From IMG/VR virus record IMGVR_UViG_3300033066_002255: 64,000 nucleotides of DNA, one strand, 5' to 3'. Under the pieces are notes generated by a model, which saw nothing but the letters and a program-made list of their open reading frames with translations, had not been told where the DNA came from and did no database searches. Both the position numbers and the translations under genes were made by a program. This DNA comes from a virus (lineage: Duplodnaviria; Caudoviricetes). Shown piece after piece: positions 9,008 to 61,402 of the stretch; within the stretch, counting starts at the first letter, position 1, and every line of letters begins with the position of its first letter.

Positions 9008-9069
9008 TTGGAGTTATTATTTGGTAAATTCATTTTTATTTACTATTTATTATAAAATAGTTTTTAAAC

Positions 9070-25911: not shown

Positions 25912-27489
25912 CTATTTTAAAGTGGTATATTCTAAACCATCTTTTGTATGAAAGAAAACAATATGCTGCAACTTACCAAGTCTATTAATAATTCCATGAC
26001 TATTAACCCAGGCGCTTGCTCCTACATTATAACCAACACGAAGATATGTTGAAGTACCTACGCTTGCAGCTCCAGCTATTCTACCTATAGTATGAGAATG
26101 TCCTGTCAAACTTTTGCTTGATAATCTACTATATTGAGATATACTACCTCTACTACCAGAAGCTCCAATGTGACCATGAACACTCATAAGCCAACCTTTG
26201 ACTTTTACGCTATCATTATGGCCAAGACACTTAAATTTAGGATATTTTTGATTAATTATATATGGAACTACTCCGTTATCTGCTAATCCCTTAAGTCTTG
26301 CCATAGAATATTCCATATATGGAATAGCATTTTTTAAAGTAGTCATTTTTCTCCAATCAGTAGTTTCAAGAAACTTATCAATATGTTCATCATGATTACT
26401 TTTTACAATATAAACATTGTATTTTTCAAAAGGTTTTAGCCATTCAATCATTTCTTTTACTTCTTTAGCTAAATCATTAGCTCCAGTCATTTCTAATTTG
26501 TGCAATAAAAATGGGTCTTTTAGGTTATGATGACTAACACTTTGAGAATCCATAATATCATGTAGAAATACTTTTTTAGGCTTTAATCTTTTAAAAAGAT
26601 TATTTAAAGTAACATCTGTAACTCTTGGGTCACAATGTCTAACATGAATATCTCCAAGAGCAATAGCTTCTACTTCAGTTTCTTTTGAAGTTTTTTCTCC
26701 ATCTACAAAAGTTTCTAAATCAATAAATTCTCCTTTTGAATTTGCTTGAACTTGTCTGAAAAAGAAAGTTTCTTTGTCCTTAATTTCAACAACTGCAAAT
26801 CCAAGAGAATGATGAAATTCACCCTTCTTTCCTTGTTTACTATCTGTATAATTTTGTAAAGTACAAGCTCCAGTAGTAAACATAATTTTATGTCTCTCTC
26901 CTTCTAAAACAGGCAACGTTTTTAATTCAATACGAGGATGTCCAACAACACAAGAGTGGTCTCCTGTCATACCTTCTAATCCTTGGAGTGGTTGAGAACT
27001 TGTAGGTTGTATTTTAATATCTGATAATACAGAAACTGCATTATTAAAATTATTTCTATTTAATGTTAAATAAGGTAAAATAGCTTCATCCCACCAATCA
27101 TCATTTTCTTGTTTATCAGTCCAAACGCTTGTTGGATTTTTAAAGCGATATGGAATTACTAAAATTTCAGCATCATATTTTTTTGCAAGAGTTTCCATAC
27201 CTTTTACAAAATTTTTGTGAATGCTTGTTGCATTTTGTGCCGCCGTAATAAAGAAAATCTTTTTATCTTTATCGTGACTTTTATTTTTGGCAACTTTTAG
27301 GATTTCTGGTTCTACAGCACCTTTTTCTGCAAATCCTAATTTGTTAGAACACCATATCCTAACAGTCCTTTCGGATTTGCCAAAAAAATCCATTAAAATT
27401 TTCATTCTTTCATCCCAAGCAAGTGTTTTATCAGTATAAACACCTTTGGCATATTTGATTTGGTCTTCTGTTAAATCTTTAAAATTCAT
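25912..27489 (-). CDS. Calcineurin-like metallophosphoesterase/nuclease, probably T5 A1-like
   Basis: GDIH, HD.MD, SNHDEH, HGH, GHSH motifs; N-terminal HTH-like region and ITAAQNAT. Confidence 0.7.
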   Translation of the reverse strand: MNFKDLTEDQIKYAKGVYTDKTLAWDERMKILMDFFGKSERTVRIWCSNKLGFAEKGAVEPEILKVAKNKSHDKDKKIFFITAAQNATSIHKNFVKGMETLAKKYDAEILVIPYRFKNPTSVWTDKQENDDWWDEAILPYLTLNRNNFNNAVSVLSDIKIQPTSSQPLQGLEGMTGDHSCVVGHPRIELKTLPVLEGERHKIMFTTGACTLQNYTDSKQGKKGEFHHSLGFAVVEIKDKETFFFRQVQANSKGEFIDLETFVDGEKTSKETEVEAIALGDIHVRHCDPRVTDVTLNNLFKRLKPKKVFLHDIMDSQSVSHHNLKDPFLLHKLEMTGANDLAKEVKEMIEWLKPFEKYNVYIVKSNHDEHIDKFLETTDWRKMTTLKNAIPYMEYSMARLKGLADNGVVPYIINQKYPKFKCLGHNDSVKVKGWLMSVHGHIGASGSRGSISQYSRLSSKSLTGHSHTIGRIAGAASVGTSTYLRVGYNVGASAWVNSHGIINRLGKLQHIVFFHTKDGLEYTTLK

Positions 27490-27512: not shown

Positions 27513-27543
27513 CAAATATAATACAAAAAAATAAAATAACAAA
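27513..27543 (-). promoter_or_regulatory. Bacteroidota primary-sigma promoter
   Basis: TTTG-N19-TATATTTG upstream of the phosphoesterase gene. Confidence 0.8.
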
Positions 27544-43000: not shown

Positions 43001-43030
43001 AATTTTTAATTTATAATAAATAGTTGAAAA

Positions 43031-49228: not shown

Positions 49229-49259
49229 CAAATATAACAAAAAAAACTTTGAAAACAAA
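49229..49259 (-). promoter_or_regulatory. Bacteroidota primary-sigma promoter
   Basis: TTTG-N19-TATATTTG upstream of the vWA gene. Confidence 0.8.
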
Positions 49260-52290: not shown

Positions 52291-53733
52291 ATGAGCGAAA
52301 AAAACAAAAAAACTCCACTTGAAGAAGCAGTCTTAAATTATGCAGAGATACAAAAATTTGCAGAAGAACATGCTGCTGCTCAATTAAAGGAGCAAGTTTC
52401 TGAAAAAATTAAAGAAATTTTTGAAGATAAATTAAACGAAGAAATTACTATTACTATTTCTAATGATGGTGAAAATGTTGAAGTTGCTAAAGACGGAGAT
52501 GTAATGTCATCAATGAATGATTTAGATAATAATATTGAAAACGGTTCAGAAGAAATGGGTCTTGAATCTCCCGAAGATAAAAATTCAGATGATGATTTAG
52601 ATTCAGATGAATTTATAGTTTCAGATGAAAATGATGAGATTTCTCTTGAAGAAGAAACTATGGAAGAAACAATTCAAAATACAAATATGGAAGAAATGAA
52701 TAAAATTACAATGGAAGATGCAGCAGCACAACCAGCAGCAGCAACAACACAAACAGCTGCTCCAGTAGCAGATGCAACAGCAGCTCCAGCAGTAGACGCA
52801 GCAGCTCCAGTAGATGGAACAGAAACAGCAGCAACACCTGAAGAAGCTATGCCAGAATTGTTATCAAAACTTGATACATTAATTAATGTATTATTACAAC
52901 AACAAGGTGCAGCACCTGAAAATGATGCAGCTACAGCAGGAGAAGATGGAGAATTTGAAGTAATTGATGATGAAGCAGGCGCAACAGCTCCAGCAGGTCC
53001 AGTAGCAGATGCAACAGCAACTCCAGCTCCAGCACCAATGCAAGAAGAAGAAATTGAAATAGTTGATTTTGATGGAGATAAAGAACATGAAAATTTCATT
53101 GATGAAATGGAAAATGAAATGTTAGAAATTGTTGATGAAGATGAAGTGCCTATGGAAGGTATGTCAATGGAAGAAACAAGAGGTCTTAGCTTTACATCAA
53201 AAAGAACAGGAGACAAAACTCTTAAAATGGATACAATGAAAGATGAAAAAGGTCATCATGCACCTGTAACATCTTTAAAAGAAAATAAAGCTCAACAAGA
53301 GTCTAAAGTAGACGAGCTCATTAAGGAAAACGTTGGTTTAAAAAACACGGTTAAAGAACTTCAAAAAGATAAAAAAGATTTTGAGGTAGCTTTTATCGAA
53401 CTCAGAAAACAGTTTAACGAAATGCAAAATTTTAATGGAAAGTTAGCATTAGTAAACAGAGTGTTAATGAATGGTGGACTTACAACAGAGGAAAAAGTAA
53501 GAATCTGTGAACAATTTGACCAAGCAGCAACATTTGATGAAGCAAATAAACTTTTTAAAACTATTATGAAAGAAAGCACTCACAAGGTTGCTGCAAACAC
53601 AGTAGATAAATTAAAAGGAGCTTCTACTAATACTATAAAACCTAGAAGTACATCAGAGCCTCTTTACGAAAGTGTAGAAGCAAAAAGATTAAAAAGACTT
53701 GCGGGAATCGGTAAAACTGAAGAAGAGAACTAA
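52291..53733 (+). CDS. Prohead scaffold protein (gp22-like position)
   Basis: Between protease and capsid genes; acidic, Ala/Pro-rich linker, coiled coil, C-terminal KRLKRLAGI. Confidence 0.8.
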   Translation: MSEKNKKTPLEEAVLNYAEIQKFAEEHAAAQLKEQVSEKIKEIFEDKLNEEITITISNDGENVEVAKDGDVMSSMNDLDNNIENGSEEMGLESPEDKNSDDDLDSDEFIVSDENDEISLEEETMEETIQNTNMEEMNKITMEDAAAQPAAATTQTAAPVADATAAPAVDAAAPVDGTETAATPEEAMPELLSKLDTLINVLLQQQGAAPENDAATAGEDGEFEVIDDEAGATAPAGPVADATATPAPAPMQEEEIEIVDFDGDKEHENFIDEMENEMLEIVDEDEVPMEGMSMEETRGLSFTSKRTGDKTLKMDTMKDEKGHHAPVTSLKENKAQQESKVDELIKENVGLKNTVKELQKDKKDFEVAFIELRKQFNEMQNFNGKLALVNRVLMNGGLTTEEKVRICEQFDQAATFDEANKLFKTIMKESTHKVAANTVDKLKGASTNTIKPRSTSEPLYESVEAKRLKRLAGIGKTEEEN

Positions 53734-53821: not shown

Positions 53822-55480
53822 ATGAGTGAATTATTAAATAGCGGTAAGGTTGGTCTTACAATTTTCAAAACATTAGCAGAGCAAAGAACTGCTATCATGA
53901 ACAACTGGAAAGATTCTGGTTTGTTAGAAGGTTTGAAAGGAATGAAGAAATCTAACATCGCTCAGCTTTTAGAAAGCCAAGCACAATCAATGTTAAACGA
54001 GGTTACTCTTGATTCTTCTGCAGGAAGATTTGATACAGTAGCATTCCCAATCGTAAGAAGAGTTTTCTCAAGATTGTTAGCAAACGAGATTGTTTCAGTA
54101 CAACCTCTTGCTTTACCTTCTGGATTATTATTCTACATGGATGCGAGAGTATCTTTCAATGGAACTGATACAACATTTAACAACCCAGTATATCCTAACT
54201 TCCCTGATAACTCAGGTGCAGGTTCTTATAGCAAAGTAGCGCCAGCTAACACTGCTAACGGACAAGCTGGTCCAGTATTCGCAGATACAACTGCATACGA
54301 AAGATTCTATAACAACAGAGGTTTCGACTTATCATTTGGTACAGGTGAAACTGCAATGGGTACAACTAATGGTGCTCTTGCAAGTACTTGGACAGGTGGT
54401 ATCAAAGCGTTAAACTTCGCTTTAGGTACAGGATTTAACGTATCAAAACAACAATCATCAGCATCTTTATATTTATCTGCTGTAACAGCGATTTATTATT
54501 CAGGTTCTAACGGTAATACTCTTATCGTAGCAGCTGGTGGAAGAGTACCTTTCTACTCTCAAATCCAAACTTGGACTCAAGACCAATTCGCTAATAACGA
54601 ATTAGATGCAGTAGTTGACTTAAGAGTTAACGGTGTATATGGTTCTGATTTCAATCCAGCGATGTTAAACAACGGTGCTGGTACATTTGGAGCATCTTAC
54701 ACAATCAATATGGTTCCTGCTTACCAAGTTTATAATGACCTTGAAGCAAAATCAGAAATGGGAGAAATCACAATCAGATTCTCAAGTGTAACTGTAAATA
54801 CAATTACAAGAAAATTAAGAGCACACTGGACTCCAGAATTAGCTCAAGATTTAGAAGCTTACCATTCAATTGATGCTGAAGCTGAATTAACAGCTTTATT
54901 ATCTGAGCACATTGCTGCTGAGATTGATAGAGAAATCATCATCGAATTAATTAATGGTGCTCCTTTCAGAGCTAGATGGGATTACAAAGGGTTATCTAAC
55001 AATGCTAACTTCTTCGGTACTCAAAAAGACTGGAACCAAACTTTAATCACAAGAATTAACGAGATTTCTGCGCAAATCCACAAGGCTACTTTAAGAGGTG
55101 GTGCTAACTGGGTAGTTTGTTCTGCTGAAGCTGGTGCAATCTTCGATGATTTAGAATACTTCCACGTGGATGGTTCTGCTCAACCAGAGTCTGAAAAATA
55201 TAACTTAGGTGTTGAAAAAATTGGTAACTTAGGTTCAAGATATGTGGTTTACAAAGACCCTTATTTACCTGCGCCAATCGTATTAATCGGTCACAAAGGT
55301 TCTACCTTCTTAGAGGCTGGTTTCATCTACGCACCTTATATTCCACTTCAGTTAACTCAAACAATCTATGACCCTAACGATTTAACACCAAGAAAAGGTA
55401 TTATGACTCGTTACGCTAAGAAGATGGTTAACAACAGATTCTACGGTGTTATCTACATTGATAATATCAATACTTACTAA
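53822..55480 (+). CDS. Major capsid protein (T4 gp23-like)
   Basis: FPIVRRVF..L.A.EIVSVQP...PSGLLFY, TRKLRA.WTPELAQDL.AYH.IDAEAEL, YAPYIPL, P.KGIMTRY. Confidence 0.97.
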   Translation: MSELLNSGKVGLTIFKTLAEQRTAIMNNWKDSGLLEGLKGMKKSNIAQLLESQAQSMLNEVTLDSSAGRFDTVAFPIVRRVFSRLLANEIVSVQPLALPSGLLFYMDARVSFNGTDTTFNNPVYPNFPDNSGAGSYSKVAPANTANGQAGPVFADTTAYERFYNNRGFDLSFGTGETAMGTTNGALASTWTGGIKALNFALGTGFNVSKQQSSASLYLSAVTAIYYSGSNGNTLIVAAGGRVPFYSQIQTWTQDQFANNELDAVVDLRVNGVYGSDFNPAMLNNGAGTFGASYTINMVPAYQVYNDLEAKSEMGEITIRFSSVTVNTITRKLRAHWTPELAQDLEAYHSIDAEAELTALLSEHIAAEIDREIIIELINGAPFRARWDYKGLSNNANFFGTQKDWNQTLITRINEISAQIHKATLRGGANWVVCSAEAGAIFDDLEYFHVDGSAQPESEKYNLGVEKIGNLGSRYVVYKDPYLPAPIVLIGHKGSTFLEAGFIYAPYIPLQLTQTIYDPNDLTPRKGIMTRYAKKMVNNRFYGVIYIDNINTY

Positions 55481-57492: not shown

Positions 57493-57524
57493 CAAAAGTA
57501 TAAATTTATTTTGATATATGCAAA
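57493..57524 (-). promoter_or_regulatory. Bacteroidota primary-sigma promoter
   Basis: TTTG-N20-TACTTTTG upstream of the HD/apt operon. Confidence 0.8.
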
Positions 57525-59728: not shown

Positions 59729-60295
59729 ATGTCTGACTTTAACGAAATAGGATTAAATCCTGAAAATATGGATGCTGCTGAGGCAAAGCCAAAAGGTATT
59801 GAATTGTTTTTCGGTTCAAAAGAAAGAGCTTTTTTTACAAATGCAGGAAGAGAAATTACTGAAGGTATATTAAAAGAGAGTTTTTTACTTTATAGAATTG
59901 ACCTTGAAAAGACACAAACAGATTTTTATGGTCAAGCTAAGAAAAAAGTTTGGCTTCCTGAAATAGAAATTTTTGGTAGAATTAATGTAGAAGTTCAAGA
60001 CCCAAAATATGTTACTAAAGGAGCAATAGAAAAGAAAGGTATGGGTAATATTACTGCTCATATTTATTTAGACCAATTGGAAGAGCTTGGTTTAATTACA
60101 AAACAACAAAACACTAATGTTATTGTAAGTGGAATTAAGATGGGCCATTTCATTGCTTATAAAGGACAATTTTATAAGATTATTGATGATGGATATTCTC
60201 AAATATCTAATGAGTTTTCATGGGGTGGAGATAGAAGATTCTTTATTACAATCAAAGGTGTTGAGGTTGATGAAGATATATTCCAAGGCCGTTAA
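59729..60295 (+). CDS. Neck/head-closure protein (T4 gp14-like)
   Basis: Position after gp13-like gene; LYRID...T..D.YG....K pattern. Confidence 0.65.
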   Translation: MSDFNEIGLNPENMDAAEAKPKGIELFFGSKERAFFTNAGREITEGILKESFLLYRIDLEKTQTDFYGQAKKKVWLPEIEIFGRINVEVQDPKYVTKGAIEKKGMGNITAHIYLDQLEELGLITKQQNTNVIVSGIKMGHFIAYKGQFYKIIDDGYSQISNEFSWGGDRRFFITIKGVEVDEDIFQGR

Positions 60296-60376
60296 GATGT
60301 AAGTTAAGGGTTTTATACCTATTTGGCGTTACTCTCTTATAATTAAAAGATTACTTTATATTAAAATATATTGTTA

Positions 60377-60612
60377 CCAGCTTTTAGTAAAAAACGTCAA
60401 AAACCAACGCCCCCTCTCATCCCCCAATTTCGAAAAATTGCTCCTAAAAGCCTAAAATAAGGCGTAGGAAGTACAGGCCGAACATATCAGCTATACTGGA
60501 CGAGAGTGGGCCTTTTGACGTTTTTATACTGGCTTGTGAGGTACCATCCCCCAGGGTAAAAACTCCTACATGTGAGACCAACGCCCCGAAGAAAACACAA
60601 TGTAGGTTAAAA
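60377..60612 (-). ncRNA. Candidate structured non-coding RNA or structured DNA element
   Basis: GC-rich island with nested stems, UUCG loops and G-U pairs favouring the minus strand; dedicated promoter; no ORF. Confidence 0.6.
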
Positions 60613-60620
60613 AATCATTT

Positions 60621-60652
60621 CAAATATAGACAATAAAAAACTTGAATCCAAA
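60621..60652 (-). promoter_or_regulatory. Bacteroidota primary-sigma promoter pointing into the structured element
   Basis: TTTG-N20-TATATTTG. Confidence 0.75.
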
Positions 60653-60682
60653 TTTTTTTTAAAACTATTTATTAATAAATAT

Positions 60683-61402
60683 ATGTCCATATTAGATAAC
60701 ATAGGAAAAAACTTGGATTCAGACTTTGAAAACCATGCTTTTTTACCACAAAAATTAGAGATTGTAGATTTGGACAAAGGGGTTTTTGAATTCATTAAAA
60801 ACCTTAATATTACTGTTACAGATGAAACAGGAAATTCAAGAGTAGTTCCAATCATATTTAATACTCATGAGCTTTGGGCTGAGAGAAGAATGAATTGGAA
60901 AAGTATGCGTAGTGAATATGGGGAAGAAATTACAAGACCCTTTATGGTTTTGACAAGAACAGCTGTAAAGCAAGGTACTTCTCCTCTTAAAAGAACTGTA
61001 CCAGTTAAGAAAAAATTTACATGGCTTAAAGTACCTACATTTGATGGGACTTTAAAAGGTTATGTTCTTTATAAGATTCCTCAGCCAACATATATTGATT
61101 TACATTATGAATTAGTTTTTGTAAGTACTTATGTTGATGATGTAAACAAATATTATACTAAAGTTTTAAGAGATGGATATTCAGATTTGCAAGGATATAT
61201 GAATATAAATGGTTATCATGTTTCTTCAAGAATAGAAGACCCAAGTGAAACGAGAGAAGAAGATTTGGCTAGTGAAAAGGTTTATGAAACAACTTTTCCA
61301 ATAATAGTCTTTGGAAAATTAGTTGACCCAACACAATTTGAGAGAGTAAATACAATTAATAAAATACAAATAAAAATTTCAGAGAAAAAATCTGATAAAT
61401 AA
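60683..61402 (+). CDS. Tail terminator/sheath stabiliser (T4 gp15-like)
   Basis: D.D.G..F, VPII....E.W, P.YIDL.YE; between neck and sheath genes. Confidence 0.7.
   Translation: MSILDNIGKNLDSDFENHAFLPQKLEIVDLDKGVFEFIKNLNITVTDETGNSRVVPIIFNTHELWAERRMNWKSMRSEYGEEITRPFMVLTRTAVKQGTSPLKRTVPVKKKFTWLKVPTFDGTLKGYVLYKIPQPTYIDLHYELVFVSTYVDDVNKYYTKVLRDGYSDLQGYMNINGYHVSSRIEDPSETREEDLASEKVYETTFPIIVFGKLVDPTQFERVNTINKIQIKISEKKSDK

Follow-up and report, generated by a model that had tools for sequence, protein, structure and literature searches.

A conserved structured RNA with a host-type promoter, predicted in a late-gene gap of uncultured T4-like phages

The gap between two late genes of a T4-like myovirus is predicted from sequence to contain a conserved RNA gene, encoded on the minus strand, that has a host-type promoter and a defined fold. 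The whole stretch of DNA analyzed (the window) spans 64 kb. The structured RNA family represented here is absent from Rfam and hence new, and no cultured carrier was found; it is kept at a fixed slot, promoter-equipped and intricately folded, by an uncultured clade of T4-like phages that appear to infect Bacteroidota. An earlier note on this DNA had proposed a phage noncoding RNA made from the minus strand under its own host-type promoter, and this part of the proposal is strongly supported by the conservation of the promoter, compensatory changes, the asymmetry of G-U pairs, independent detection by a covariance model, and the lack of a conserved open reading frame (ORF). It had also suggested a 6S-like decoy, a protein sponge, an antisense regulator of late genes, or a transcription-primed origin as possible functions; membership in the 6S family is not supported, as discussed below. 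Phage structured RNAs with known roles are few (phi29 pRNA, phage tRNAs, and anti-defense RNAs), and each of these has revealed new biology.

The late-gene gap and its promoters

The window encodes a Gp23-type major capsid protein (53822-55480) and, from 61744, a tail sheath protein. Among cultured phages, the closest major capsid protein comes from Flavobacterium phage immuto (44% identity), which fits a Bacteroidota host. The window is AT-rich (mean G+C 28%), in contrast to an element whose G+C content reaches 47-50% and that sits in the 387-bp gap leading from gene A to gene B, both of which are plus-strand late genes. As the earlier note had claimed, this island of about 240 nt contains no gene-like ORF: the longest ATG-initiated ORF in the element comprises 13 aa, and a search for a conserved small ORF among relatives identified none that was conserved in length, frame, or sequence. 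Two further G+C-rich islands were detected in the window (50-54% against the mean of 28%), at 2390-2563 and 52686-53056. These fall inside the ORFs 1825-2556 and 52291-53733, respectively, the second of which has no PHROG or Pfam match. The features of the locus, in the order in which the predicted RNA would be transcribed, with the flanking genes at either end, are as follows.

60683-61402, plus strand: gene B, the downstream flank, 239 aa; no family or PDB match
60663-60672, plus strand: AACTATTTAT, putative late promoter of gene B, a boundary mark outside the RNA
60649-60652, minus strand: TTTG, the -33 element of a Bacteroidota-type promoter; (T)TTG in all 32 aligned relatives
60621-60628, minus strand: TATATTTG (TAnnTTTG), the -7 element; box exact in 30 of 32 relatives
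60367-60614, minus strand: predicted RNA, about 235-250 nt, with a start at about 60612-60615 placed from the promoter and a 3' limit placed from the end of conservation
60565-60606, minus strand: hairpin P1, with a stem of about 10 bp and a conserved 21-nt loop, followed by a U-run; all eight modeled pairs covary
60579-60587, minus strand: motif copy 1, GGGGCGUUG, in the P1 loop; invariant in 32 sequences
60540-60562, minus strand: P1b, small hairpin or linker UUUUUACCCUGGGGGAUGGUACC; consensus UUAC.C ... G.GUAG
60498-60533, minus strand: 5' strand of the long helix P2, pyrimidine-rich, starting right after P1b; from the window's own fold
60425-60497, minus strand: variable domain within P2, predicted to form three hairpins (60425-40, 60442-69, and about 60471-97)
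60376-60422, minus strand: 3' strand of P2, with two G-runs, motif copy 2 (60404-60413 on the plus strand), a U-run, and a tail ending in CUGGUA
59729-60295, plus strand: gene A, the upstream flank in the neck region, 188 aa; no family match

The perfect Bacteroidota-type promoter that had been noticed at 60621-60652 on the minus strand is present, in the form TTTG-N-TATATTTG, and the sole reading frame downstream of it is, as noted before, ATG-ATT-TTT-TAA. In each of the 32 aligned family members, (T)TTG is located 20-21 nt upstream of TAnnTTTG, and the sequence of the spacer drifts. Perfect copies of the same promoter type (TTTG-N-TAnnTTTG) were identified in the window at 27513-27543, 49229-49259, and 57493-57524, all on the minus strand and directly preceding minus-strand operons that start at 27489, 49199, and 57473. 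Thus, the phage seems to use this promoter type for genes that are read against the late genes, and the three units look like early units, transcribed by the host polymerase, that oppose the late genes.

The RNA promoter and the motif AACTATTTAT are arranged back to back. Copies of (A/T)ACTATTTAT, exact or with one mismatch, are present 4-51 nt upstream of late genes at 9041, 10367, 45435, 53780, 58223, and 60663 on the plus strand, and another copy is at 43016 on the minus strand; the genes served by this set include the capsid gene and gene B, and the copy upstream of gene B is kept in relatives. This motif is probably the late promoter of the clade. Given that its copies precede several late genes at such short distances, the copy at 60663-60672 looks like a late promoter as well.

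Fold of the predicted RNA

The minus strand of 60367-60614 folds with a predicted free energy of -86.6 kcal/mol (z = -4.8), and none of 200 shuffled sequences was as stable; the plus strand reaches -68.3 kcal/mol (z = -4.4). In the consensus structure, 96.7% of the cells are canonical on the minus strand vs 83% on the plus strand, 14% being G-U, and the positions that face the G-runs alternate between C and U (U-G or C-G pairs), as expected for a fold of the minus strand. The asymmetry of the G-U pairs, this alternation, and the difference of 18 kcal/mol between the two folds jointly indicate that the minus strand is the one predicted to fold. Because G-T wobbles are tolerated in single-stranded DNA too, the strand asymmetry alone does not prove an RNA.

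The comparison of relatives shows a predicted three-part fold, which consists of the P1 hairpin, P1b, and P2 with its junction. Across the family, the stem of P1 comprises 8-11 bp and is followed by a U-run, and the loop (21-24 nt) has a consensus that includes a U-rich stretch and then GGGG(G)CGUUG.UYUC. The separate hairpin that had been described at 60565-60606 corresponds to P1, and CUUCGG is present in its loop on the minus strand. P1b is nearly invariant; the changes observed are from A-U to G-U, along with a few on both sides of a pair. In relatives, the 5' strand of P2 pairs with the G-runs via many U-G pairs, and the 3' strand has the general form of G5-7, a spacer of 3-6 nt, G5-7, a second CGUU, a U-run, and a tail CCCUAA..CUGGUA; the segment separating the two G-runs covaries with the sequence opposite it. 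Both helices described earlier for this region are found in the sequence, namely, the perfect 13-bp stem (60390-60402 with 60513-60525) and the inner helix (60409-60422 with 60498-60511), in which the one G-U wobble of the minus strand reads as an A-C mismatch on the plus strand. Also present are the internal hairpins, at 60425-40 and 60442-69. The hairpins of the variable domain covary in relatives and differ in number and size, such that P2 closes a junction of two or three of them. One subgroup contains an extra conserved internal-loop domain (CUGCAGG..UAAG / CCUCUCAC). A natural minimal variant was also observed (L208:1237-1442, minus strand), in which P1, P1b, and P2 are kept and nearly the whole inner junction domain is missing; this variant is useful for defining the core of the RNA.

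Conservation ends just after CUGGUA (alignment A2; CTGGTA as DNA), and the 3' tail pairs back to the region just past P1b. That conservation stops at this point speaks for a discrete RNA, about 235-300 nt long, whose ends are paired.

The earlier note had proposed a test for covariation among relatives, and compensatory changes were found. Across 16 sequences, 96.2% of the cells pair, compared to 42-52% with slid partners, and 26 pairs are altered on both sides, compared to 4-11 in the slid controls. The observed value was reached by none of 500 shuffles, a count that is not a probability because the sequences compared are related to each other. For P1, in a model-based alignment of 50 distinct sequences, all eight pairs covary, with three to five pair types each. 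A single consensus structure was sought for the whole N-group alignment (A4), which represents the window's own subgroup, and none was obtained, the lower strands of P2 being inconsistently aligned. Consequently, support for the lower part of P2 in the window comes from the fold of the window itself and from helices common to the other subgroup.

The RNA contains a duplicated module. Its first copy begins at the G-run of the P1 loop and extends through P1b, and a similar stretch begins at the second G-run of P2 and reaches the 3' tail; a covariance model of the 5' domain (R1, described below) weakly re-finds this 3' module. Motif copy 1 (GGGGCGUUG) is identical to copy 2, located 174 nt downstream. 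The 3-4 nt that follow the G-run vary between lineages yet match, or nearly match, within each of them (CGUU/CGUU, CAUU/CAUU, CUUG/CUUG, UCUG/UCUC, and UUUG/UUUC). Within P2, these nucleotides are paired to the 5' strand, for example with GUU opposite AAC or, in one relative (L125), AUU opposite AAU (read by hand). Such concerted change could mean that one partner binds both copies, or that the copies alternate in pairing with one pyrimidine strand, as a switch; by analogy with ColE1 RNA II, the loop copy could also pair with the template DNA at copy 2.

Distribution of the RNA and other contents of the gap

Relatives were gathered via the two flanking proteins from IMG/VR and metagenome contigs, yielding about 150 loci, in most of which the gap between gene A and gene B is 300-460 bp long. 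In the closer relatives, the gap aligns block by block with the window element. The covariance model R1, which represents the 5' domain, was built from 25 relatives with the window excluded; it finds the window at 60541-60619 on the minus strand (E = 3.8e-7), its sole match in the 64 kb. R1 matches more than 50 loci, always in the same position and antisense to gene B. The 5' domain is present at the same slot and on the same strand in 36 of the 43 distinct loci in which gene B is at least 55% identical, but in just 5 of the 47 loci with a gene B below 55% identity.

A motif scan of IMG/VR showed that true members are confined to this locus, the remaining matches being due to chance. The same kind of scan over 185,579 representative prokaryote genomes (one per species) yielded 22 matches, all by chance, and hence no host or prophage copy at that stringency. 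Among cultured phages, blastn searches with the gap and with 6.5 kb against 50,697 phage records returned nothing relevant, nor did tblastn with gene B return anything. In Flavobacterium phage immuto, the gap after the head-completion genes is 430 bp long (L269:15323-15752, corresponding to MW353176.1 133210-133639) and its annotation includes two tiny ORFs of 38 and 41 aa on the minus strand. Comparison of this gap with the window element showed no similarity, and the immuto gap is not notably structured (z = -1.5).

In more distant relatives, other cargo is carried in the gap, with orientation and promoter type unchanged. One kind, denoted type B, is a structured RNA of about 330-400 nt encoded on the minus strand about 100-450 nt upstream of gene B (L144, L167, L168, L197, and L253). 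Another structured element, type C (L132, L136, L137, L139, and L219), includes a hairpin with the loop AGACGG...ACACCUG, and its long 3' hairpin terminates in GGGGGAAC; it has no Rfam match. In a third set of loci, with gene B about 50% identical, the slot is occupied by a gene for a protein of 257-274 aa (L143:621-1439, minus strand, with homologs in L146-L157, L187, L229, L234, and L237), which in L162, L169, and L182 is on the plus strand. The structural model of this protein (pLDDT 79) consists of two winged-helix domains whose matches are just generic MarR/SarS-type (E >= 0.015), and no family could be assigned to it. A role as a Rep initiator was considered for the slot protein and rejected because its model matches these generic winged helices and no Rep-like fold.

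With other RNAs or a winged-helix protein in the same position, the gap appears to be a slot for exchangeable, independently expressed cargo, and the RNA in the window fits the description of an accessory, independently expressed cassette. The variability of the cargo points to a cassette for early regulation or host takeover that can be exchanged. The family also offers a defined target, with more than 50 natural variants, the minimal version in L208, and clear motif pairs; adding this RNA to family libraries would allow the tiny spurious ORFs that gene callers can place in such gaps to be recognized. A further arrangement was seen at L190:531-1475 on the plus strand (from the same contig as L002 and L019), where an ORF of 314 aa lies between the RNA and an intact gene B. 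In this ORF, a copy of the gene B N-terminus (MGILDNIGNNLDENFENHAY) is fused to an HNH-like nuclease, and the 5' domain of the adjacent RNA scores only E = 0.013.

Possible roles and comparison with known RNAs

The reading that we hold with moderate confidence, based on the conservation and pairing patterns, is a stand-alone RNA gene, expressed early, whose stable product would act in trans. Host sigma-A RNA polymerase would start at TTTG/TAnnTTTG and transcribe the minus strand antisense to the late neck and tail genes, probably early in infection. In the fold shown by the comparison, the P1 hairpin displays GGGGCGUUG in its large loop, with the small hairpin P1b next to it, and P2 pairs its pyrimidine strand with the two G-runs and the second GGGGCGUU, closing the junction of two or three variable hairpins. 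The RNA would then serve as a stable scaffold or decoy that offers both G-run motif copies to a single partner; this partner would most likely be a protein, possibly a dimer. The features generally expected of a small RNA gene, namely, its own promoter, compensatory structure changes, and the lack of a conserved ORF, are all present at this locus. Against a scaffold or decoy acting in trans, the two copies may stay alike because both pair with the same 5' strand of P2, or because copy 1 pairs with the template DNA at copy 2, and the base of P2, with its A-run and U-run, also resembles a two-way terminator for the flanking late operon.

Several of these observations would be read differently if the element were a transcription-primed origin, which we consider unlikely. 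In this case, the G-rich RNA would form a persistent RNA-DNA hybrid and prime DNA synthesis, as in ColE1 RNA II or T4 oriF/oriG, the exposed G-run loop of P1 pairing with the C-rich template at the identical downstream copy and nucleating the hybrid. The likeness to these R-loop origins lies in an intergenic, structured or G-rich transcript with its own promoter and, for ColE1 RNA II, in an upstream G-rich loop that repeats a downstream G-rich stretch; according to Masukata and Tomizawa, RNA II reportedly needs this repeat to seed the hybrid. The locus has the corresponding sequence layout: downstream of a conserved host-type promoter comes a G-rich RNA segment that is complementary to the C-rich template strand farther on, and the RNA strand contains two G-runs, then a U-run, and then an AT-rich stretch. 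The loop motif and its downstream copy stay identical as lineages diverge, exactly what such a model needs, and T4 origins are located in late regions, where they are driven by early or middle promoters. However, the G-runs in the window RNA are tied up in an RNA-RNA helix, in which the spacer covaries with the partner strand. The 3' tail also folds back onto the 5' part, like that of a discrete, stable RNA, and there is no sequence relation to RNA II or to oriF/oriG. Also against an origin, the slot in distant relatives is filled by unrelated RNAs or by the winged-helix protein without a Rep-like fold match. Cumulative GC skew shows no turn at the element, although it is uninformative in this respect because it tracks the coding strand. 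A related proposal, which we regard as doubtful, is an RNA II-like primer or a conformational switch, in which the upstream G-run loop would capture the template DNA or, alternatively, the pyrimidine strand of the RNA itself, and the fully complementary 3' UTR of the late neck mRNA would neutralize the RNA late in infection; if true, a T4-like phage would have an origin or a timer made of structured RNA. The version in which the P1 loop copy and the 3' strand of P2 compete for the pyrimidine strand, so that a ligand or protein decides between a stop at the U-run of P2 and read-through antisense into the neck genes (a self-switching leader or attenuator), is less probable still. It would account for the two copies being alike over the G-run and the next 3-4 nt and changing together, for the roughly 12 bp that the P1 loop can form with the 5' strand of P2 (hand pairing), and for the U-runs after both P1 and P2, but the minus strand contains no gene for 2.9 kb downstream, and conservation and pairing extend past the U-run.

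Action in cis appears improbable as well. Here, the element would work mainly in cis, with P2 terminating transcription both ways or insulating the gene A operon from gene B. The antisense transcript would act solely by pairing with the 3' UTR of the late neck mRNA, resulting in RNase III cleavage or mutual titration. At its base, P2 has a 13-bp stem with an A-run on one side and a U-run on the other, and the plus strand folds well too, as its z-score of -4.4 indicates. Furthermore, gene B has its own late-promoter-like motif beyond the element, so late transcripts of gene A must end inside or near the element and would be fully complementary to the RNA. Yet a terminator needs neither a multi-helix structure of 240 nt and invariant loops nor a duplicated motif and its own conserved promoter, and the G-U pattern points to selection on the minus-strand fold. 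A scan for simple terminators was empty here, though its loop limit excludes P2. Least probable of all, and by a wide measure implausible, is a locus with no RNA function, consisting of repeated binding sites for a protein on double-stranded DNA or of a small protein gene. Direct repeats of ACCAACGCCCC (60403 and 60577) and of TACCA, about 170 bp apart, are compatible with binding sites, which would leave the compensatory changes in at least 26 base pairs unexplained; a small protein gene is contradicted by ORFs that are conserved in neither length, frame, nor sequence.

No signature of tRNA, tmRNA, RNase P, or SRP had been recognized in the element previously, consistent with the scans performed here. 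ARAGORN predicted no tRNA or tmRNA in the window, and the 4227 models of Rfam 15, which include 6S, 6S-Flavo, tmRNA, RNase P, SRP, Y RNA-like, group I/II introns, ribozymes, and riboswitches, gave no matches in the window at gathering thresholds. At E <= 10, a single chance match to a miRNA model was obtained over 60200-60800. No family was assigned to the window or to 26 related loci in scans at gathering or E-value thresholds, a scan of 12 related loci gave no matches, and a literature search found no description of the RNA; the novelty proposed earlier therefore stands. The GGGGnCGUU motif resembles the 5' end of tmRNA, although in this RNA the motif is not at the 5' end. Resemblances to boxA, to a T-box (UGGU with the tRNA CCA), and to anti-Shine-Dalgarno pairing were considered and set aside. 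A reading of CCUAAG/UAUGG as an 11-nt tetraloop receptor, made by eye, was dropped because the opposite strand is not conserved as UAUGG.

Similarly to 6S RNA (RF00013; 6S-Flavo, RF01685), the predicted RNA is a structured product of the host polymerase of about 200 nt with a long closing helix and a possible decoy role. Unlike 6S RNA, both its minimum free energy fold and the consensus show a three- to four-way junction closed by P2 instead of a large central bubble resembling an open promoter, and it has no Rfam match to these models even at E <= 10. Membership in the 6S family is thus supported neither by the Rfam models nor by the predicted shape. The phi29 pRNA, of about 170 nt, is likewise a phage-encoded structured RNA with its own early promoter beside virion genes; it differs in showing no similarity to the window RNA, for which no intermolecular loop pairing is evident. 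T4-type packaging motors are not known to require RNA. Among the other occupants of the slot, the type B RNAs of L167, L168, and L197 match the Betaproteobacteria-1 RNA (RF02932) over its full length but weakly, scoring 26-28 bits against a gathering threshold of 49.4 (E about 0.1), whereas the window element gives no match. The shared features are a large-loop hairpin and, after it, a hairpin with a CUGnGGGAA loop, and the window RNA contains a similar segment, ACCCUGGGGGAU.
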